12,048 nt of DNA from a virus. The notes under the pieces are model-generated. The model saw nothing but the letters and a program-made list of their open reading frames with translations. It was not told the DNA's origin and made no database searches. The DNA is taken from positions 1-12,048 of IMG/VR virus record IMGVR_UViG_3300045988_058916. The stretch is one strand, 5' to 3'. Of this stretch, positions 1-12,048 are shown one piece after another. The translations under genes were made by a program, and so were the position numbers. Each line of letters begins with the position of its first letter. The stretch's first letter is position 1.

Positions 1-109
1 GGTACACAAAGCACCCCAATTTAACATTTCCCAACGCATTTTTAACAGTTGCTAACACACTTTGGCACGGTTTTTGCTGTGCCACAAATACCTTACATTT
101 TACGTTTAT

Positions 110-136
110 TTAACACATTTAACACACCGTTAACAC
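110..136. repeat. Three phased TTAACAC copies inside the ITR (mirrored at 11913..11939)
   Basis: TTAACAC occurs at 110..116, 119..125 and 130..136, with start-to-start spacing of 9 and 11 nt. Related TTAACA/CTAACAC copies occur at 21..26, 42..47 and 52..58. Confidence 0.6.
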
Positions 137-168
137 TGTTAAACTTTCATAAAAATTAGGTTGCAAAT

Positions 169-209
169 GTTTCACGTGAAACGGTAGTAAGTGATGTTTC
201 ACGTGGAAC
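169..209. promoter_or_regulatory. Pair of 14-bp palindromic sites: GTTTCACGTGAAAC (169..182) and GTTTCACGTGGAAC (196..209). Candidate protein-binding sites.
   Basis: The first site is a perfect 14-bp palindrome; the second has one mismatch. Their centres are 27 bp apart. The same 14-mer recurs at 7025..7038 and in the right ITR. Confidence 0.55.
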
Positions 210-270
210 AAAAGATGGTATATGTTAAAAAGATTAAAATTTAAAATTTTACACTATTTAACAAAAATAA

Positions 271-302
271 TTTGGTGGTTTCGAAAAAAAGTCGTACCTT
301 TG
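271..302 (+). promoter_or_regulatory. Bacteroidota-type promoter of the rightward arm (-33 TTTG at 271..274, -7 TACCTTTG at 295..302)
   Basis: TTTG, 20 nt, TAnnTTTG matches the published Bacteroides/Flavobacterium sigma-A promoter consensus. A 20-mer, AAAATAATTTGGTGGTTTCG, is shared with the right-end promoter. The first ATG lies 46 nt downstream. Confidence 0.65.
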
Positions 303-1093: not shown

Positions 1094-1516
1094 ATGAAGA
1101 AAATCAAGTATTTTAAGTTATCCGAATTTATCAATTCAGCAACGGCAAAACGTTTGGGTATTGATAATACACCCACGTTTGATGTAGTGGACAACTTAAA
1201 CCGTTTAGCAGACTATCTAGACGGCATTCGTGCAAAGCTAGGTAAACCGATTTTGGTTTCTAGCGGTTATCGTTGCCCGATGTTGAATAAAGCGGTTGGT
1301 GGGGTTGTTAACAGTCAACATTTGAAGGGTTTGGCTGCCGATTTAATTTGCGCTGATATGGAATCTTTAGAAAAGGTTCTGTTAAAAACGGGCGGTTACG
1401 ACCAACTTATAAAAGAACATCGCAAAGGTTCTAACAGTTTTTGGTATCACGTTTCTGTTTGCCCACGTAACGGCAAACCTCGTAACCAAATAATAATGAA
1501 TCTAGAAAAGAAATAA
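1094..1516 (+). CDS. Endolysin, peptidase M15 family (Peptidase_M15_3 / D-Ala-D-Ala carboxypeptidase-like zinc metallopeptidase), 140 aa
   Basis: The N-terminus YFKLSEFINSATAKRLGIDNTP and the segment SGYRCPMLNKAVGGVVNSQHLKGLAAD (zinc-binding H-x6-D) plus the later WYHVSV His are typical of phage M15 peptidases. I start at the internal ATG 1094 (MKKIKYF) rather than 1010, because 1010..1093 overlaps the upstream ORF and encodes a non-homologous extension. Confidence 0.88.
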   Translation: MKKIKYFKLSEFINSATAKRLGIDNTPTFDVVDNLNRLADYLDGIRAKLGKPILVSSGYRCPMLNKAVGGVVNSQHLKGLAADLICADMESLEKVLLKTGGYDQLIKEHRKGSNSFWYHVSVCPRNGKPRNQIIMNLEKK

Positions 1517-3932: not shown

Positions 3933-5117
3933 TTAGGCGACGAAGAACACTACAAAGTTTTCGTTGGTATCGTTAAAATACCCTGCATCGAATTTGTAGT
4001 AATTGTTGAAAAACTCTGCTTTTGCGTTGTAATTTGTTGTTACTCGCTTATCTAAGTTAGTAACACCCAAAGCGTCACGGTCAAACATCACACCTAGAAC
4101 ACCGCTAATAGAAACGGCTGCACCGCTAGCAGATTTTACGTCAATCTTCGAAACGTTGGCAAAAGCATAGTCTTTGCCCGTTGCCTGCCAACTTGCCACG
4201 GTTTCAGCCGTTGGTAGCATAACGTTATCGTTGTGGTATGTATCAGCATACAGATAAGTCTTTGCAGCAGTTGCAAAATCAGACAACAAAACGGTGTGCA
4301 AAACGTCTTTCGGTGTGAAACGTTCCTTACCTCCCACGTTGAAAAGTGTTGAAATTGTCTGCAAACGGTCTGAATATAGCCCCATAGTATATGCAGCGAA
4401 ACGTATAAAATCGGGTGTGGTAATTGCAGCATTTGCAGCCAAATGTGCCCCCGTCTTGTCGTTATATAATTTGAGCAAGTTTACGCATCTAACAGTACTT
4501 GCCGTACTGTAATCCACTGTTTCGTGACTAGAAGCAATCCAACCAAATGCAGCTTTATCAGCGTCTAAGGTTTCAGCAATCATATTGTTAATTGTGCGCA
4601 TAATAAGTGCATCGGTCTTGATAGTCATAGACTTTTCAACTGCCGAGTAAATCATTGAAAGAAAACCGTTAAGTTGTTCAGCACTACTGAAAGACTCTTT
4701 TACTTGTCTTTCGGTAATTGAAACGGGCACCTCAAACGTCACCTTCGAATTGAAAAATTTTGCAGAAACAGTTGGTTTGTGAAAAACGTCTTGTTTGTAC
4801 TCTTTGCCGTCTTGCAAATTCCACGTGTCGTTTTCTTCTGCAACGGGCACGTCAGCAGAAATCTTTTCAAGAACACTACCAAATTCCCATGCATCCATAA
4901 GAACACTAGGGACTTTGCCTGCATAAGGGCGGTTCACGAAAACAACCTTACCAATATGGTTCACCAGTGATTTAACGTAGTTGTCAACGGCATTCTGATT
5001 AAAAATCTCGTTGCCCAAATCTACTACACCCGTAAGGTCTTCCTGCACCAAATCGGTTTTGCCCAAAACCTCACTTGAAACGCTATTAATAAGCGTGTAA
5101 ATCTGTTTAATCTCCAT
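3933..5117 (-). CDS. Major capsid protein, phi29 gp8-like (HK97 fold), 394 aa
   Basis: NYVKSLVNHIGKVVFVNR resembles gp8 DFITSLVDRIGLVVIRQV. The C-terminal FDRDALGVTNLDKRVTTNYNAKAEFFNNYYKF resembles gp8 [30 protein letters not shown] (from memory). It lacks the C-terminal BIG2 domain of phi29 gp8. Confidence 0.8.
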   Translation of the reverse strand: MEIKQIYTLINSVSSEVLGKTDLVQEDLTGVVDLGNEIFNQNAVDNYVKSLVNHIGKVVFVNRPYAGKVPSVLMDAWEFGSVLEKISADVPVAEENDTWNLQDGKEYKQDVFHKPTVSAKFFNSKVTFEVPVSITERQVKESFSSAEQLNGFLSMIYSAVEKSMTIKTDALIMRTINNMIAETLDADKAAFGWIASSHETVDYSTASTVRCVNLLKLYNDKTGAHLAANAAITTPDFIRFAAYTMGLYSDRLQTISTLFNVGGKERFTPKDVLHTVLLSDFATAAKTYLYADTYHNDNVMLPTAETVASWQATGKDYAFANVSKIDVKSASGAAVSISGVLGVMFDRDALGVTNLDKRVTTNYNAKAEFFNNYYKFDAGYFNDTNENFVVFFVA

Positions 5118-5132
5118 TTTATAAAATTTAAA

Positions 5133-5702
5133 TTAATAAATATCTAATGTTAACTCTTTTGCAAGTTCTGTAATAACCTGCATTTTGAAATTTGTTCTTC
5201 TGAGATTTATTTCTTTTTGAATAATCTCACTAGTAAGATAGCTAGACGGAACACCGTTTTTAACACTTGTTTTCGTGCCCGTTTCTTGTCTGCTTCCCGT
5301 TGTGTCACGTTGTTGTTTTGTGTCATTGCCAAATCCCCCATTATTAAATGTTGTACTTGAATCGATAGTATTATTATTGCCCGTTTCGTCAACGTTTGTA
5401 CTTGTTGTTTCCGTTAACTTTTCAGTAATCGGGTTTAATACCTCATATTCAGTGTTAAACACTTGAATCTGTTTTTGCCACGCATCAAAGTTTACTGTTA
5501 TGATACCTTTTACAATATCATTTGCAGTTTCGTTTGTGATGGCATCTACTAGTGTTCTGTTTCCGTATTTGAAACGAAAATCCGTATCAATAACTTTCGG
5601 GTCATCATCTCCAAAAATAGACTGATACAAGACGGGAAAAAGCGGTTTAAAGATTTTTTCAAATAAACCATTTTCACCCGTGAAAAGTTCATTTATCTTC
5701 AT
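5133..5702 (-). CDS. Structural-module protein of unknown role, 189 aa. Candidate scaffolding protein or lower-collar/head-tail adaptor.
   Basis: It lies between the portal and capsid genes, and its start overlaps the portal 3' end by 14 nt. The central T/N/G/S-rich segment (TETTSTNVDETGNNNTIDSSTTFNNGGFGNDTKQQRDTTGSRQETGTKTS) is low-complexity. The role is a positional inference only. Confidence 0.3.
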   Translation of the reverse strand: MKINELFTGENGLFEKIFKPLFPVLYQSIFGDDDPKVIDTDFRFKYGNRTLVDAITNETANDIVKGIITVNFDAWQKQIQVFNTEYEVLNPITEKLTETTSTNVDETGNNNTIDSSTTFNNGGFGNDTKQQRDTTGSRQETGTKTSVKNGVPSSYLTSEIIQKEINLRRTNFKMQVITELAKELTLDIY

Positions 5703-6750
5703 CTTCTTTTTCTTCTGTTTCTTGTGTTTCTTCTGTTTCCGTTTCTGTTTCTTCTGTTTCTTCTGTTTCTTCTGTTTCCGTTTCTGTTTCTTCTGTTTCT
5801 TGTGTTTCTTCTGTTTCGCCCGTTTCGTTTTCGTTTACGGGGTCAACGTCTTCTGTGTCGGTGTGGTCGTGCCCGTCTTCTGTTTCCTGCAATAAAGACA
5901 AGTAATTTTCGTGTTCAATTTTCCAACTTGAGCCGAGTGTTACGGTTATATCCGTACCGAACATTTCGTTAACACGTTTTACGCCCTCAACACGTTCTGT
6001 TAGCATTGAATCAACAAACGGCATTAATGCGTCAATATTCATTGAAACTTCTTGAGTGTTCAAACGTTCACGTTTCATATTGTAATTTGCGTTCAAACCT
6101 AGGTCGTTAAACATAGACGCTTTATAGTACTGCAAAAGTTCTATTAATTGTCCTATCTGCAAATTACTTTGTGACGGTGGGGTTTGCATATTTACACCTT
6201 TGAAAAATGCATTTTCACCGATAACGGAAAAATCACCGTCCAAAATCTTTTGCAGAAACAATTCTGCACTTTGTTTTGTCTTGTCATCACTAGCAGAAAT
6301 CAACATTGTAATGCGTGTTAAAATACTCGTCATATTGAGTGTTATTACTGTATCAGTATATAGCACACCATATTTGCCTATAATAGGCAGTATTGAATCT
6401 GCAAACGGGGTGTTATTGATAACGACAATATCGGAATCTATTTTATATGTTTTGTCAAGCTTTAGCCACGGGTTTGCTACCACATAATCTTTTCCGTGAT
6501 AATAAGCGTCACATTCGCCCCCACGTGTGCCCTGCAAAGCATACAAGTTTCCGTTAACTTCTGCTATTCCAACGTTACCGCTTGTTTGAAGAATCTTTTC
6601 AAGTTCAACGGGCGGCATTGTTTCGGGTGTTCCGTTGTACTCAAACATTTTTGTCGTCATACAAAGAACACGTTGCATAAACGAATTTAATGCCGTGTCT
6701 TTGTCTTTTACTTCTGTTTGGTACAAATTATATAAGTTTTCTTTTTTCAT
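5689..6750 (-). CDS. Portal (connector / upper collar) protein, phi29 gp10-like, 353 aa, with an extended acidic Glu/Thr repeat C-terminal tail
   Basis: [27 protein letters not shown] resembles gp10 [44 protein letters not shown] resembles gp10 NLEKKERMVTDEVSSN (from memory). The C-terminus is [45 protein letters not shown]. Confidence 0.85.
   Translation of the reverse strand: [353 protein letters not shown]
5710..5817. repeat. In-frame tandem triplet repeat (39-bp unit, about 2.7 copies) encoding the portal Glu/Thr tail
   Basis: 5731..5769 and 5770..5808 differ at one base. A 30-nt direct repeat occurs at 5710..5739 and 5788..5817. All units are multiples of 3 nt. Confidence 0.85.
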
Positions 6751-6944
6751 TACTTGATAAGCGTTTTAATTAACGTGCAAAGTTCAGTTAACACTTTCGT
6801 GTTACTTTGCACCGTTTCGTTTAACTTGTCGGTTTCGTTTTGGTGTCTTTCGTTCTGTTTCTCCATATAGAAGAAAAGGGCGACACACACCGCTACGGGA
6901 AACCCCACGTTACTAATTAGCGATATTAATCCGTTTATATCCAT
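6750..6944 (-). CDS. Small single-pass membrane protein, 64 aa, YvrJ-like. Holin candidate.
   Basis: LISLISNVGFPVAVCVALFFYMEK matches my recollection of the YvrJ family (PF12841) ISN-GFP-hydrophobic-helix signature. There is one predicted TM helix followed by a polar helical tail. It is the first gene after the late promoter, and its stop overlaps the portal ATG (TAATG). Confidence 0.55.
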   Translation of the reverse strand: MDINGLISLISNVGFPVAVCVALFFYMEKQNERHQNETDKLNETVQSNTKVLTELCTLIKTLIK

Positions 6945-6975: not shown

Positions 6976-7007
6976 CAAAGATACCCATATTATTTGGTTT
7001 CACCAAA
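6976..7007 (-). promoter_or_regulatory. Bacteroidota-type promoter of the structural (late) operon (-33 TTTG at 7007..7004, -7 TATCTTTG at 6983..6976, read on the - strand)
   Basis: TTTG, 20 nt, TAnnTTTG has the same spacing as the two end promoters. It lies 31 nt upstream of the ATG at 6944, just downstream of the early-operon terminator. Confidence 0.65.
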
Positions 7008-7010
7008 TAA

Positions 7011-7054
7011 AACGGGGGAAAATTGTTTCACGTGAAACAATTTTAACCCCCGTT
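7011..7054 (-). terminator. Long hairpin terminator of the replication/packaging operon, containing the GTTTCACGTGAAAC palindrome (7025..7038)
   Basis: 7019..7044 is a 26-bp perfect palindrome (AAAATTGTTTCACGTGAAACAATTTT). It is extended by AACGGGGG / CCCCCGTT arms with a 2-nt bulge. On the - strand it is followed by TTTTATTT. It starts 9 nt after the ATPase stop. Confidence 0.7.
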
Positions 7055-7062
7055 AACAGATA

Positions 7063-8202
7063 TTAAGTGATGATATTGCTCCTAGCACTTGCCATTAGGT
7101 AGTTTCTAACAATTTCGCCTATCTCGTTATTTTGGTAAAATACCTTATCTGTCGCGAAATACTTAGTTATCTGTGCCTCCAAATATGTGGCAGTACTTAG
7201 TAATTTACGCTTATAATTAGGTTTACCGTTCATTTGCAGCGAATAAATCAAGCTATTTTCCGTGTCTTTTATCGGGGTTGTTTTGTTATGTATATAGATA
7301 AAGTTGTTCACCCCGTTTTCTTTGTCTTCTATCTGAATAACGTTTCCCTGCAAAGTCATCTCATTAAACTGAATATAGAACACAAATAACACGTCTTTCG
7401 GTTTGTATTTAACGGGCAAATGTGGGTAAACTGCCAATTCCCATTTACCGCCCGTTATCATTTGCAGATTTTCGTTATCAAAGCAAAAATACTTGTTACT
7501 TGCTTTTTGCTTTATAATTGTACTGCAATATTCTACTGCGACCGTTGCACCGTGTTCACCGAATCGGTAAATGTCTATCGTTCCCTGCTCCATCACTCTT
7601 ACCTGCTTTAAACCCATTTCGGTAAAATACGGGCAAAATTGATTTACGGTGTTACCCAACATAAAGACTTTCACATCGTTTCTCTGTCGTATTATTGTGC
7701 TCAATAAATTCATATAAAGCATAAACTCATCGGGCAAATAGTAACGTCTAGTTAAAAACTCATCGAAAACGACCGTTGTTATGTTCGGGTAACTGCTAGA
7801 CTTTTCGTGTTCTTGTTCTGATAAACAGAAACCAAAACAGAAAGGTGTGCTATCGGGTACACGTTTTTTGGTTTCTGCATCATAAGACGAAAGAAACCAT
7901 TTACCCGACACGTAAAACACCTCGTTAAACTTGCCGTTTGTCAATTCTTGAATCACACCATTAGCAACGTGATTACTGAATAAACTTTCAGCTCGTTTTC
8001 CTCGCAAATCTTCACGCCATCTACGGATATACGCCATCTGTTTTCCCGTGCGCAAATACTCTTTTATGCCATACAATAACGTGGCATAAGTCTTTCCGTT
8101 TGAGCGTTCACCGAATATAACGTTGTAATCGGCATTCTTTGCCAAAATTCTAGAAAGACTGTAAAACTTTGGCGTTTCTACTTTTTCTTTCTTCTGTTTC
8201 AT
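7063..8202 (-). CDS. DNA packaging (encapsidation) ATPase, phi29 gp16-like, 379 aa
   Basis: Walker A: YNVIFGERSNGKTYA resembles gp16 LNFVIGARGIGKSYA. MAYIRRWREDL resembles FIYVRRYKPEL. Walker B: SSYPNITTVVFDEFLTR resembles NAYPNVSTIVFDEFIRE (from memory). Confidence 0.88.
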   Translation of the reverse strand: MKQKKEKVETPKFYSLSRILAKNADYNVIFGERSNGKTYATLLYGIKEYLRTGKQMAYIRRWREDLRGKRAESLFSNHVANGVIQELTNGKFNEVFYVSGKWFLSSYDAETKKRVPDSTPFCFGFCLSEQEHEKSSSYPNITTVVFDEFLTRRYYLPDEFMLYMNLLSTIIRQRNDVKVFMLGNTVNQFCPYFTEMGLKQVRVMEQGTIDIYRFGEHGATVAVEYCSTIIKQKASNKYFCFDNENLQMITGGKWELAVYPHLPVKYKPKDVLFVFYIQFNEMTLQGNVIQIEDKENGVNNFIYIHNKTTPIKDTENSLIYSLQMNGKPNYKRKLLSTATYLEAQITKYFATDKVFYQNNEIGEIVRNYLMASARSNIIT

Positions 8203-8203
8203 A

Positions 8204-10414
8204 TTATTCTTTTTTTAGTCTTATTCCCATTAAATAGTTTATATAAAGAACTGAAAGACTCAAAGTGTACCCCGTTGGTTCTAGGTGTACGCCAGTTACC
8301 GTGTCGTAACTTGAAACCGTACCCAAATAGTCTTTTATTGTTCCCGTTTGCTCATAGTCAATATATGTATGGATATTTTTGCCCGTTGCTATCGGTGGAA
8401 TATCTAGATAATTTGTAAATGCGTCAAAGATACCACTTTCACCGTATGTTTCTAACAGATACGGTATTGCATCTTTCTTGTTCACACCCGACACCGTTAT
8501 GCAATAATTATAGTCTTTTCCGTCAACTGTAAGGGCGTTTTCTTCCTCAACTAGATAACGTTTAGCCCCTAACGTTTTAAAACGCTTGTAACGCCCCTCG
8601 TAATCCCATATCCCCAAAAGTTTTGCGACCCCTTTTATTGTAACGGGTTCTACCTTTTCAAAAGGTATTTTATGAAATTTACAAGCTGCACGTAACTTTT
8701 GTTGTACCAAATCATTGTATGCTTTAAAATACGCTTTGTGGGCATCACCGTTCATTATTTTAACTGAATCGGTATCACTGTATATATAGTCATCTCCACA
8801 TTCAGAAATTCCCGTGAAAAGGTTTCGTCTAGCATAAGCGGTAACGTAAATACCCCACGGGTAAAAAAGAAAACGGTTTTTGCTATCATTGTATTTCGTC
8901 AGCATCTCTAATTTCTTTTCACTTGTCAAGTGTTCAATATCCCACGTTTCACCGTCACACAAAATCTCATCACGCAAAGGGTTTGTAACACACATACCAT
9001 AACAACTGTTTAACATCTCCTTACTATTTAAATACTCCACTTCTTTTCCACGCACGCCTTTTAGTTTCGTCTTCATTTCGTACAAATGGAGTATTGAATC
9101 CACAAATTCGGTGGGCAAATATTCTTTGCGGTAACAAATCATTTTGCCAATTCTGAAATTTTCCCAGCTGTAAAACTGCGAGAAAACTTTAAAATCTATT
9201 TCAGTAATAGTCATACATATTCGTTTTGCACAAACCAATCGCCCGTTATTTTCTGATATGTTTTCTTTTACAAAGCACTTACTAACAGAAATAGGATTTT
9301 CGTTTTCTGATTTTGCAAAAATGTTGTTTATCTCAATATCGAAAACACAACAAAATTTGCTTGTCATAAACTCAAATTGTTTCATTGATTTAATGGGTAC
9401 AAAAACACCCGTACTCATAGGAAAACGTTCTGAAACCATCACATAAGGGTAACTACTAGTAAAATCATAACTATCAACGTTTTCTATTACCTCATCGGTG
9501 TATTTAGCATTTGCGTGCGTGAAACCACCTGCAAACGCACGTTGCAACATTTCAAATTCTTCTATGCCAGTAATATTTAAGCTATGGATTTTATCTAAAT
9601 ACTTAAAATTCGGTACGGTTTTCCCCGTTTCGTTATCTTCTGTTTTGAAACAAATAGACCTGCAATATTTACGCACGAATCCCGTTTTCGTAAGTGGCAG
9701 TTTTGTTATGCCCTTATAACGTTCAATCAATTCTTGAATATAGCACATTACTACTTTTATATCGTTCAGACAATAACCAATCTCTTTTTGTGTTAACGGT
9801 GTTTTACTGTGACGTAATAGGCTATAATCTAAGTCACCAACTAACTTTTCACATTTGTATTTATGTAATTGTTCGCCTAACTTTGCCAAAGAATAACCGC
9901 TTAAAAGATACGAGCATCTAAACTCTAAACCCGTTTTTGTTATTCCATAAATAGGTTTACGTAAATCTATAGAGAAAACTTTTTCCCATAACAGTAACTC
10001 ACGGAAAAATTGAAACTCGTATGCTAGGTTATGCACGTATATAATGATACGTCTTTTTGTATTTAGTTTCAGAATTATTTCTATTTCTGATAACATATCC
10101 AAAAATTCTTCCCACGTGCGACCAATAATACAGAATCCGTTTATTCCAAATTGCCAAACATACATTAAAGAACACTTTTCCATTTTTGTATCTTTTCCAC
10201 CTAGTTTAATGTAACGGTCGTAACTATATGTTTCACCGTCAGCATCTCTATAGAAAGACGTTGTTTCAATATCAAACGAAACGGGCACATTTAAGAACTT
10301 TTCGCCCTTATTATTGCCAACGAAATTCTTTTCGTTCACTGCCAAAGATAAAACTTTTGCAATATCTTTCGGGGTGTACGTTTCTGTATGTAATTCAAAT
10401 GGAATCTTTTTCAT
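8204..10414 (-). CDS. Family B DNA polymerase, protein-primed type, 736 aa
   Basis: ExoI VSFDIETTS, ExoII YVHNLAYEFQF, ExoIII YCLNDIKVV, motif A DSYDFTSSYPYVM (Dx2SLYP-like), motif B KEMLNSCYGM (Kx3NSxYG), motif C YSDTDSV, KxY LGAKRYL. The context (ITRs and an adjacent candidate terminal protein) fits protein priming. Confidence 0.93.
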   Translation of the reverse strand: MKKIPFELHTETYTPKDIAKVLSLAVNEKNFVGNNKGEKFLNVPVSFDIETTSFYRDADGETYSYDRYIKLGGKDTKMEKCSLMYVWQFGINGFCIIGRTWEEFLDMLSEIEIILKLNTKRRIIIYVHNLAYEFQFFRELLLWEKVFSIDLRKPIYGITKTGLEFRCSYLLSGYSLAKLGEQLHKYKCEKLVGDLDYSLLRHSKTPLTQKEIGYCLNDIKVVMCYIQELIERYKGITKLPLTKTGFVRKYCRSICFKTEDNETGKTVPNFKYLDKIHSLNITGIEEFEMLQRAFAGGFTHANAKYTDEVIENVDSYDFTSSYPYVMVSERFPMSTGVFVPIKSMKQFEFMTSKFCCVFDIEINNIFAKSENENPISVSKCFVKENISENNGRLVCAKRICMTITEIDFKVFSQFYSWENFRIGKMICYRKEYLPTEFVDSILHLYEMKTKLKGVRGKEVEYLNSKEMLNSCYGMCVTNPLRDEILCDGETWDIEHLTSEKKLEMLTKYNDSKNRFLFYPWGIYVTAYARRNLFTGISECGDDYIYSDTDSVKIMNGDAHKAYFKAYNDLVQQKLRAACKFHKIPFEKVEPVTIKGVAKLLGIWDYEGRYKRFKTLGAKRYLVEEENALTVDGKDYNYCITVSGVNKKDAIPYLLETYGESGIFDAFTNYLDIPPIATGKNIHTYIDYEQTGTIKDYLGTVSSYDTVTGVHLEPTGYTLSLSVLYINYLMGIRLKKE

Positions 10415-11043
10415 TATAGACCAAAATTTTTAAAACTATCTAGAATCCTTTGCACCGTGTCTTCCACGACCTCACCAACATTATCAATACTGTTTTGTAA
10501 GTTGTCGGCAATTTTAACGGCATCACTTTCTATTTGGTCGGACACATCACGACTTTCTTGTTCCAATTCGCCCGTAAAATCTTTGTACTGCATTAAATAT
10601 TGTTCAAGAAACTTTTCGTCTGATACGCTAGAGATTTTGCCTATTAACTTGTTTTGCATTAAACTAAACTCATCGTCAGTTAGTTTATATGTTTTCTTTA
10701 AGTGTTTGGCATATTCGTTTGCACCCGTTGCCGTTGATGTTGGCTGCTGCAAAAATGCGATAGCTTTAGAATATTCGATTTTTAGGTCGTTCCAGTTATG
10801 TTTCATTGAAAACTTTGAATAACCTTTTACGTCACCCTTATTTAATGCCACAACTGCGGGAGATACCACACCGTTTTTCTCTATATTCTGAATGCGTCTA
10901 TTTGCCTGCTGAAAAACCTTCGAAATTTGTTTTCTTAAACTAGGGCTAGACTCAACGGCATTGATAATTTCTTTTTTGATACGGGCTTTTTTCGTTGCAT
11001 TAAATGTACGATTACTAAACCCGATAGGATTTTTATTTGCCAT
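10414..11043 (-). CDS. Candidate terminal protein (replication primer), 209 aa
   Basis: Position only. It lies immediately upstream of the polymerase and is translationally coupled to it (TAATG overlap at 10412..10416), as with phi29 gene 3/gene 2. The N-terminus is basic and the C-terminus acidic. I recognise no motif. Confidence 0.4.
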   Translation of the reverse strand: MANKNPIGFSNRTFNATKKARIKKEIINAVESSPSLRKQISKVFQQANRRIQNIEKNGVVSPAVVALNKGDVKGYSKFSMKHNWNDLKIEYSKAIAFLQQPTSTATGANEYAKHLKKTYKLTDDEFSLMQNKLIGKISSVSDEKFLEQYLMQYKDFTGELEQESRDVSDQIESDAVKIADNLQNSIDNVGEVVEDTVQRILDSFKNFGL

Positions 11044-11059
11044 AAAATAAATATAAAAA

Positions 11060-11091
11060 GGGGGCGATTATTAATTAAAACAACCGCCCCC
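11060..11091 (-). terminator. Intra-operon stem-loop with T-tract (possible attenuator) between the 121-aa gene and the terminal-protein candidate
   Basis: On the - strand: GGGGGCG, 18-nt AT loop, CGCCCCC, followed by TTTTTATATTTATTTT. The stem is a 7-bp GC stem. Confidence 0.4.
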
Positions 11092-11754: not shown

Positions 11755-11786
11755 CAAAGATAAGTCAATTTTACGAAACCACCAAA
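11755..11786 (-). promoter_or_regulatory. Bacteroidota-type promoter of the replication (early) operon (-33 TTTG at 11786..11783, -7 TATCTTTG at 11762..11755, read on the - strand)
   Basis: TTTG, 20 nt, TAnnTTTG. It shares the 20-mer AAAATAATTTGGTGGTTTCG with the left promoter. Confidence 0.65.
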
Positions 11787-11834: not shown

Positions 11835-12048
11835 CTTTTGTTCCACGTGAAACATCACTTACTACCGTTTCACGTGAAACATTTGCAACCTAATTTTTAT
11901 GAAAGTTTAACAGTGTTAACGGTGTGTTAAATGTGTTAAATAAACGTAAAATGTAAGGTATTTGTGGCACAGCAAAAACCGTGCCAAAGTGTGTTAGCAA
12001 CTGTTAAAAATGCGTTGGGAAATGTTAAATTGGGGTGCTTTGTGTACC
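11835..12048. repeat. Right inverted terminal repeat (214 bp)
   Basis: Exact reverse complement of 1..214. Confidence 0.95.
11840..11880. promoter_or_regulatory. Right-ITR copies of the palindromic sites (GTTCCACGTGAAAC at 11840..11853, GTTTCACGTGAAAC at 11867..11880)
   Basis: Mirror image of 169..209. Confidence 0.55.

Follow-up and report, generated by a model that had tools for sequence, protein, structure and literature searches.

Copies of the chromosomal parS palindrome at the ends and the operon boundary of a 12-kb phi29-like phage genome

A 14-bp palindrome, GTTTCACGTGAAAC, is present at both ends of the window (the whole 12,048-bp stretch of viral DNA analysed here) and at the boundary between its early and late operons. 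Read with the T and the A that flank it, it is TGTTTCACGTGAAACA, the consensus chromosomal parS bound by ParB/Spo0J. Judged from its sequence, the palindrome is very probably a ParB target site, and we put at roughly 0.7 the probability that it is a host-type parS by which the phage recruits host ParB, as phi29 does. Since the site is the canonical chromosomal one, host ParB, and not one of the small early phage proteins, is the expected binder. The sequence-only reading had proposed a dimeric DNA-binding protein of phage or host origin; a dimer would suit a palindromic site of this type and the host appears the likelier source, a small early phage protein being disfavoured. That reading had also taken the site to be unrelated to known ones, which its identity to parS contradicts, and had looked to the p4/p6 proteins of phi29 for its closest analogy, a place that phi29's own parS/Spo0J system fills better. 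In annotation, the palindrome of a phage genome should be labelled parS and not taken for a novel operator.

Host-type parS sites on phage genomes have been studied in phi29 and Nf only, there for spore entrapment, and a review of phi29-like phages from 2024, which includes a bioinformatic survey, mentions neither host-type parS sites nor their wider tandem occurrence. The sites described here are conserved in a large family of gut phages of about 12 kb, the host of which is probably non-sporulating. The window would thus carry a phage-borne host-type parS, as phi29 does, and differ from it by tandem sites embedded in the inverted terminal repeats (ITRs), by a site at the apex of a terminator and, probably, by a host that does not sporulate.

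The window is a complete linear phi29-like podovirus genome with perfect ITRs of 214 bp (the arms are 100% complementary, the next ~100 nt 73%). Its membership of the phi29-like phages follows from matches to all four Pfam families PF03175, PF05894, PF05352 and PF25622 and from its linear form with ITRs. By protein comparison, its nearest cultured relatives belong to the Astrithrvirus group (Salmonella phages astrithr and Astrid, Acinetobacter phage Phanie and Pectobacterium phage DU_PP_III), at 58-60% capsid identity. GenBank phages yielded no match to the whole window in a megablast search, and relatives were instead collected through the capsid protein. Of 379 matches in an IMG/VR capsid search, 80 with 88-94% capsid identity, mostly from one metagenome, were kept; these are too alike for footprinting of the central region, and the informative comparisons are the ITR alignment and the more distant lineages. 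No tRNA was found in the window, and an Rfam search of it returned nothing at gathering level, phi29 pRNA included.

The promoters bear on the nature of the host. The Bacteroidota consensus TTTG-N20-TAnnTTTG has five matches in the genome against 0.56 expected; all three intergenic promoter regions match it and have ATTTGGTG in common at the -33 box. A sigma-70 promoter scan gave 44 matches for 40.4 expected, that is, no enrichment, and the Shine-Dalgarno sequence is absent at the starts of all 15 genes. Taken together, the promoter type and the missing Shine-Dalgarno sites lead us to infer that the host belongs to the Bacteroidota. Assignment from metagenomic bins was rejected as unreliable: those containing close relatives are named Melainabacteria/Gastranaerophilales, Prevotella, Scatosoma and Christensenellaceae, which are inconsistent with one another, and the relatives in these discordant bins carry identical Bacteroidota-type -7 boxes.

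In a word search of the whole window, the exact 14-mer occurs at 169-182, 7025-7038 and 11867-11880, and copies with one mismatch occur at 196-209 (GTTTCACGTGGAAC) and 11840-11853 (GTTCCACGTGAAAC); allowing up to two mismatches adds no further copy. These are the positions listed by the sequence-only reading, which had also found no other copy and had proposed a comparison of expected with observed counts. That comparison gives five 14-mer sites for 0.14 expected, a number reached in none of 200 shuffles (0/200). Because the two ITR arms form a perfect inverted repeat, the four terminal copies count as two independent sites, and the whole window as three, which is still far above chance. For bare CACGTG the expectation is 3.08 and the count 9, of which five lie within copies of the motif.

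None of the five copies falls within a gene. Matches to the promoter pattern place each of them before one of the three Bacteroidota-type promoters, in agreement with the sequence-only reading (Table 1). The central copy is 18 bp from the -33 box of the late promoter, and its centre precedes the inferred start of late transcription by ~62 nt. The tandem ITR sites lie 61-88 bp upstream of their -33 box and 170-210 bp from each genome end, and the perfect repeat stops 4-5 bp beyond the inner copy.

Table 1. Coordinates of the parS sites, promoters, terminal repeats, terminator and main genes of the window
Feature	Position	Strand	Remarks
Left ITR with two parS sites	1..214		arm complementarity
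parS L1, TGTTTCACGTGAAACG	168..183		perfect 14-bp core; 16-mer mismatch at last base
parS L2, TGTTTCACGTGGAACA	195..210		differs solely at consensus N; variant of four phi29 sites
Left-end promoter, TTTG-N20-TACCTTTG	271..302	+	61 bp downstream of parS L2
M15 peptidase gene	about 1094-1516	plus	
phi29-type major capsid protein gene	3933-5117	minus	profile match
phi29-type connector gene	5689-6750	minus	profile match
Holin-like 64-aa protein gene	6750-6944	minus	
Late promoter, TTTG-N20-TATCTTTG	6976..7007	-	columns conserved in relatives
Intrinsic terminator of right-hand (early) operon	7011..7054	-	stem AACGGGGG..CCCCCGUU, parS apex, U-rich tract
Central parS, perfect 16-mer TGTTTCACGTGAAACA	7024..7039		terminator hairpin apex
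gp16-type DNA packaging ATPase gene	7063-8202	minus	PF05894, E = 1.7e-22
Organellar/viral type B DNA polymerase gene	8204-10414	minus	PF03175 match
Right-end early promoter, TTTG-N20-TATCTTTG	11755..11786	-	downstream of parS R2
Right ITR with two parS sites	11835..12048		arm complementarity
parS R2 (ITR copy of L2), TGTTCCACGTGAAACA	11839..11854		
parS R1 (ITR copy of L1), CGTTTCACGTGAAACA	11866..11881		

Two other kinds of repeated element were noted. The half-site GTTTCAC occurs 16 times in the window against 2.67 expected; 8 occurrences are outside full sites (586, 1071, 2219, 4315, 6997, 8946, 9519 and 10230), and the one at 6997-7003 falls in the spacer of the late promoter. Binding of ParB to half-sites is reported for Pseudomonas aeruginosa in PMC10419367. 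Within the ITRs, blocks 20-68 and 99-146 are conserved as well, among them TTAACATTTCCCAACGC and TAACACACTTTGGCAC, together with repeats of the words TTAACA/GTTAACA; they are candidate origin or terminal-protein recognition elements.

When the 16-bp palindromes are compared with TGTTNCACGTGAAACA, the central copy is a perfect match, the copies at 195-210 and 11839-11854 deviate solely at the N position of the parS consensus, and those at 168-183 and 11866-11881 solely at the outermost base. A review tabulates the consensus as tGTTNCACGTGAAACa for Firmicutes, Actinobacteria and Proteobacteria, and among the papers listed as containing TGTTTCACGTGAAACA nearly all are studies of ParB/parS, the exceptions being one on Noc, a paralogue of ParB, and one on a tool for finding origins. 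With the consensus, parS clusters have been located in twelve gut bacteria, each of which has ParABS and one of which is Bacteroides caecimuris, and ParABS with consensus parS is reported for gut Bacteroides and Muribaculum.

The motif is conserved at equivalent positions in related genomes, as the sequence-only reading had required. Where contig ends permit, it is kept at both ends in about 80 close relatives, and in those with complete contig ends the terminal repeats hold two to three tandem copies, mostly 27-29 bp apart. When the 81 left ends (window and 80 relatives) are aligned, both parS copies appear as invariant islands, and the spacer between them and the flanks fall to 40-55% column identity. 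The relatives' ITR copies fit GTTTCACGTG(A/G)AAC in 134 of 145 cases, with core columns conserved at 95-100%, and the L2-type variant is dominant among them (101/145). Natural changes in these copies concentrate at the known degenerate position of parS, the CACGTG core being retained, and the T and A beside the 14-mer are conserved. Outside the ends and the centre, close relatives have almost no copy. At the centre, a copy with at most two mismatches is found in 77 of the 81 genomes, the window included, and is perfect in 48. The central copies follow the parS consensus more loosely (54/77 fit): 29 of the 77 have at least one mismatch, and three more genomes have a 1-nt deletion, with the hairpin kept. 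Because such mismatches and deletions are tolerated while the hairpin is maintained, the central copy may be less important as parS than as a terminator.

The central copy has indeed a second job, in that the palindrome is the top of the early-operon terminator hairpin. The packaging ATPase gene, the last of this operon, ends immediately upstream of the central parS and the terminator. The minus-strand fold of 7054-7011 is a hairpin of 19 bp interrupted by a 2-nt bulge, AACGGGGG-UU-AAAAUUGUUUC/ACGU/GAAACAAUUUU-CCCCCGUU; the region has a folding energy of -31.6 kcal/mol (z = -5.7) and is followed by the U-tract GUUUUAUUU, which reaches the -33 TTTG of the late promoter. This fold agrees with the sequence-only reading, which had placed the central copy in the stem of the early-operon terminator, some 60 nt before the late start. 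The hairpin is retained in all 69 distinct relatives (mean -20.7 kcal/mol) and in the three genomes with a degenerate parS. Indels in the outer stem misalign the columns, and the sequence of each relative was folded separately; read by eye, the outer-stem changes are compensatory (CGGGGG/CCCCCG versus CAGGG/CCCTG). A GC-based hairpin, a U-tract and compensatory conservation are thus all found, as expected of an intrinsic terminator.

Changes within the 14-bp apex, by contrast with those of the outer stem, come singly and always without compensation. Structure is therefore what constrains the base of the stem, and sequence what constrains the apex, the latter constraint being looser than in the ITRs. 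This distinction bears on the possibility that the resemblance to parS is incidental, the central copy being a mere terminator hairpin and the ITR copies structural or protein-primed origin elements. Such a possibility would account for a hairpin and U-tract that are conserved even where the parS core is degenerate, and for ITR copies that lie inside a perfect repeat ending just after the inner copy. We nevertheless regard it as scarcely credible: apart from the uncompensated changes at the apex, a parS-identical site stands at three independent places for an expectation far below one, the ITR copies form no extended hairpin, and many unrelated phages without ITRs carry the same pair of sites.

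More distant relatives show how far the arrangement extends. The four proteobacterial phages astrithr, Phanie, K58 g2 and DU_PP_III have no parS at up to three mismatches, and proteobacterial Astrithrviruses have no intergenic gap between the packaging ATPase gene and the next small gene. In a second group of relatives (group B, 75-79% capsid identity), the ITR sites are kept, and the left-end gene set and the central intergenic region are absent. Because the gap is missing from both, the module made of terminator, parS and promoter is specific to the clade of the window, though two relatives at 68-69% capsid identity, L210 (JAZUKR010000061.1) and L216 (JAZRKO010000018.1), have parS in the same gap. 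L210 contains 14 one-mismatch sites per 12 kb, many directly upstream of the start codons of early genes, and L216 contains 6 perfect sites per 12 kb, 3 of them inside coding regions. Together they have several sites within polymerase and structural genes, two of the in-gene sites being at homologous positions. A position-independent loading site therefore fits better than a promoter operator.

The same site recurs in phages of other kinds. A scan of IMG/VR found tandem site pairs in at least 110 viral contigs, about 40 of which, among the contigs listed, are outside the clade of the window; a control palindrome pair made from a permuted half-site was found in none. Thirty-seven loci outside the close clade, with GC contents of 0.27-0.60, were examined. 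They include other phi29-like groups, with a polymerase identity of just 21-32%, and contigs of 15-94 kb that encode HK97-type capsids, prohead proteases and large terminases, and the pairs adjoin or sit within capsid, protease, terminase, tail and lysin genes. None of the outside-clade loci checked has an adjacent ParB gene, and ribosome-binding sites differ among the few inspected. An identical site of 14-16 bp in phages of very different hosts suggests a universally conserved host protein, and the independence of the site from lineage and base composition is what is expected of parS. This suggests that recruitment of ParB is perhaps a more general phage strategy than currently appreciated, and tandem parS in unrelated viral contigs deserves a systematic census. 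Up to four tandem copies were seen among the IMG/VR contigs L085-L158, examples of tandem arrays being L092 1957-2006, L102 2834-2937, L112 1157-1228 and L138 8259-8305.

Could a protein of the phage itself bind the sites? A small early protein acting as a dimeric regulator, in the manner of p4/p6, could coordinate the early promoters, late activation and possibly the origin. Sites upstream of all three promoters, the central one centred near -62 of the late promoter, are compatible with such a role, and several small ORFs have no assigned function. Yet the site is identical to universal parS, and no ORF has a recognisable DNA-binding domain: searches of Pfam, PHROGs and NCBIfam gave no match of any window ORF to ParB, HTH, RHH or other DNA-binding families, PDB sequence searches with p121 and p108 gave nothing significant, and p121 has a weak match (E = 0.04) to the archaeal RNA polymerase subunit Rpo7. 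As the window ORFs include no ParB domain, a host protein would be required. Moreover, the presence of the site across lineages tracks no small protein of the window. Unrelated phages of 27-60% GC carry it without homologues of p54, p121, p108, p66 and p41 (none is detectable in loci L115, L200, L085 and L096), and group B keeps its ITR sites in spite of the losses described above. A phage-encoded regulator is for these reasons a very improbable binder.

The phi29 p4/p6 switch resembles the window in that its sites lie between early and late units and near end-proximal early promoters. It differs in that family searches detect no p4 or p6 homologue among the window ORFs, small ones included, and in that the site is that of a host protein, common to unrelated phages. 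Membership of the p4/p6 switch was rejected, since the small ORFs have no family match and the site is parS, not the annotated p4 site of phi29. Coordination of an early/late switch, antitermination and origin activity, as put forward by the sequence-only reading, are conjectural roles of the sites.

A closer parallel is found in the parS sites of phi29 and Nf. Like the window, these are protein-primed phi29-like podoviruses with several host-type parS and no ParB of their own. PMC2731898, citing Meijer et al. (2005, EMBO J 24:3647), gives the number of parS sites in phi29 as five and mentions evidence for a role of Spo0J in segregating the infecting phi29 genome into the prespore. Our scan of the phi29 sequence (NC_011048) found TGTTTCACGTGGAACA four times, at 10445, 15903, 17243 and 18760. 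This variant is common to phi29 and the window, and in both one copy follows the packaging ATPase gene at a terminator of the early/late boundary: the phi29 site at 17243-17258 (L185) starts one base past the stop codon of gene 16 and adjoins the bidirectional terminator TD1. The differences are that the window has tandem sites within 214-bp ITRs, phi29 having 6-bp repeats and no terminal sites; that the central copy of the window belongs to the terminator stem, the phi29 copy being beside the terminator; and that the host appears to be a non-sporulating Bacteroidota, with ParB binding in the window a prediction from sequence. A spore-entrapment strategy was rejected for the window, Bacteroidota-type promoters and the lack of Shine-Dalgarno sequences arguing against a Bacillus or Clostridium host; in a Bacteroidota host, which would form no spores, the sites cannot serve that end. 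A parS right downstream of the gp16 ATPase gene recurs in phi29, in MG-B1 (L219, 24729-24744) and in the window, at a terminator or a convergent operon boundary, and L216 and L210 have theirs in the same gap.

Other phi29-like phages are unequal in this respect. Two sites each were found in the Bacillus phages BSP11 and MG-B1 and in an Enterococcus faecium phage, and one each in phages of Clostridium symbiosum, Clostridium_AQ and Amedibacillus, for expectations of 0.07 or less. The sampled phages of Arthrobacter, Bifidobacterium, C. perfringens, Salmonella, Pectobacterium, Acinetobacter and Vibrio have none. Enterobacteria are not known to have chromosomal ParABS, with which the lack of sites in the Salmonella and Pectobacterium phages fits. 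Acinetobacter and Vibrio hosts do have ParABS. Many gut relatives are also without any site. Because sites are missing from these gut relatives and from the Acinetobacter and Vibrio ones, parS is optional, and not essential, to this phage type.

The question arises as to what host ParB would do on such a genome. After injection, ParB dimers would bind the five sites, two per terminal repeat and one central, shut into clamps in a CTP-dependent manner and travel along the 12-kb genome. Accumulation of ParB-CTP requires DNA that is closed or capped at its ends, with which the location of sites beside protein-capped ends fits. The covalent terminal proteins, together with reloading from end-proximal sites, may help to retain the clamps on the linear molecule, and tandem sites close to each end with one in the centre could keep it loaded. 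The coated genome might then be handled as a small chromosome by host ParA/SMC, through nucleoid tethering and positioning, and, with lytic growth delayed, be partitioned between the daughter cells, which would be a non-sporulating counterpart of phi29 spore entrapment. That positioning or partition is the main purpose of the sites is a tentative proposal, which we hold at somewhat less than even odds. More speculative is the fuller picture, in which a lytic-looking, protein-primed linear phage of gut Bacteroidota is partitioned like a mini-chromosome via host ParB-parS, its terminal-protein end caps retaining the clamps, and many unrelated lineages do likewise. If true, it would amount to a non-integrative carrier state without lysogeny genes, and parS offers a testable handle on the persistence of virulent gut phages in dividing host populations.

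Two families of known systems frame this proposal. With chromosomal ParABS (parS near oriC, a ParB CTPase clamp, ParA and SMC loading), the window has in common the same 16-bp sequence, its degeneracy pattern and clustering of sites; it differs in being a linear viral genome of 12 kb with protein-capped ends and no parA or parB in cis. The plasmid and prophage partition systems of P1 and N15 encode their own ParB and parS, and KorB is a ParB-type repressor of RK2. As in our proposal, these place a ParB-family clamp on an extrachromosomal replicon, and KorB shows that a clamp can regulate promoters; the difference is that the window carries a host-type site alone, whereas those elements encode a ParB with its own site.

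Because every site is just upstream of a promoter, ParB occupancy may, secondarily, also lower early and late transcription. One may go further and suppose that host ParB at parS is mainly regulatory, repressing or timing early and late transcription and coupling lytic development to the cell-cycle or growth state of the host, much as phi29 Spo0A boxes defer the lytic cycle. The position of all five window sites upstream of promoters would fit, as would the parS sites of L216 and L210 that precede by 4-7 bp the -7 box of the promoter following the gp16 gene, and a site in L200 that is 7 bp upstream of a TTGACA-N17-TATAAT promoter; in these three loci the site adjoins the promoter core or overlaps it. 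ParB is, moreover, reported to repress promoters beside parS3 and parS4 in P. aeruginosa, and ParB-parS to modulate competence in S. pneumoniae. However, the ITR sites of the window, at 61-88 bp upstream of the -33 box, are far for direct occlusion, and sites are found inside coding regions in relatives and in unrelated phages. It also counts against this explanation that chromosomal ParB has generally weak effects on transcription. We consider a mainly regulatory purpose unlikely, and partition the better account of the sites.

Less likely again is that the sites act as a sink, hundreds of replicating genomes with five sites each titrating host ParB from the origin region and thereby disturbing segregation, SMC loading or division to the advantage of the phage. 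The density of sites (5 per 12 kb in the window, 6 in L216 and 14 in L210) and the enrichment of isolated GTTTCAC half-sites are what a sink would predict. A simple sink would have no need, however, for the conserved placement of tandem sites in the ITRs and of a site at the operon boundary, and the role that published evidence supports in phi29 is genome segregation.

Some minor features of the genome may be added. The M15 peptidase (endolysin) gene at 1094-1516 (+) belongs to the left-end operon, convergent with the late operon, and is on the late strand in Astrithrviruses; a bidirectional GC-rich hairpin terminator, at 1519-1544, separates the two operons. Within the right-hand early operon, a strong intrinsic terminator at 11060-11091 (-), GGGGGCGG...CGCCCCC then TTTTT, sits between the 121-aa gene and the 209-aa gene, the latter probably encoding, by its position, the terminal protein. 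Such a placement suggests that transcription continues into the replication genes at an attenuated level. Lastly, the 3' end of the connector gene contains a 9-nt/39-nt tandem repeat of TTCTGTTTC units (5695-5829, -) which, on the coding strand, would encode an acidic Glu/Thr-rich C-terminal repeat.
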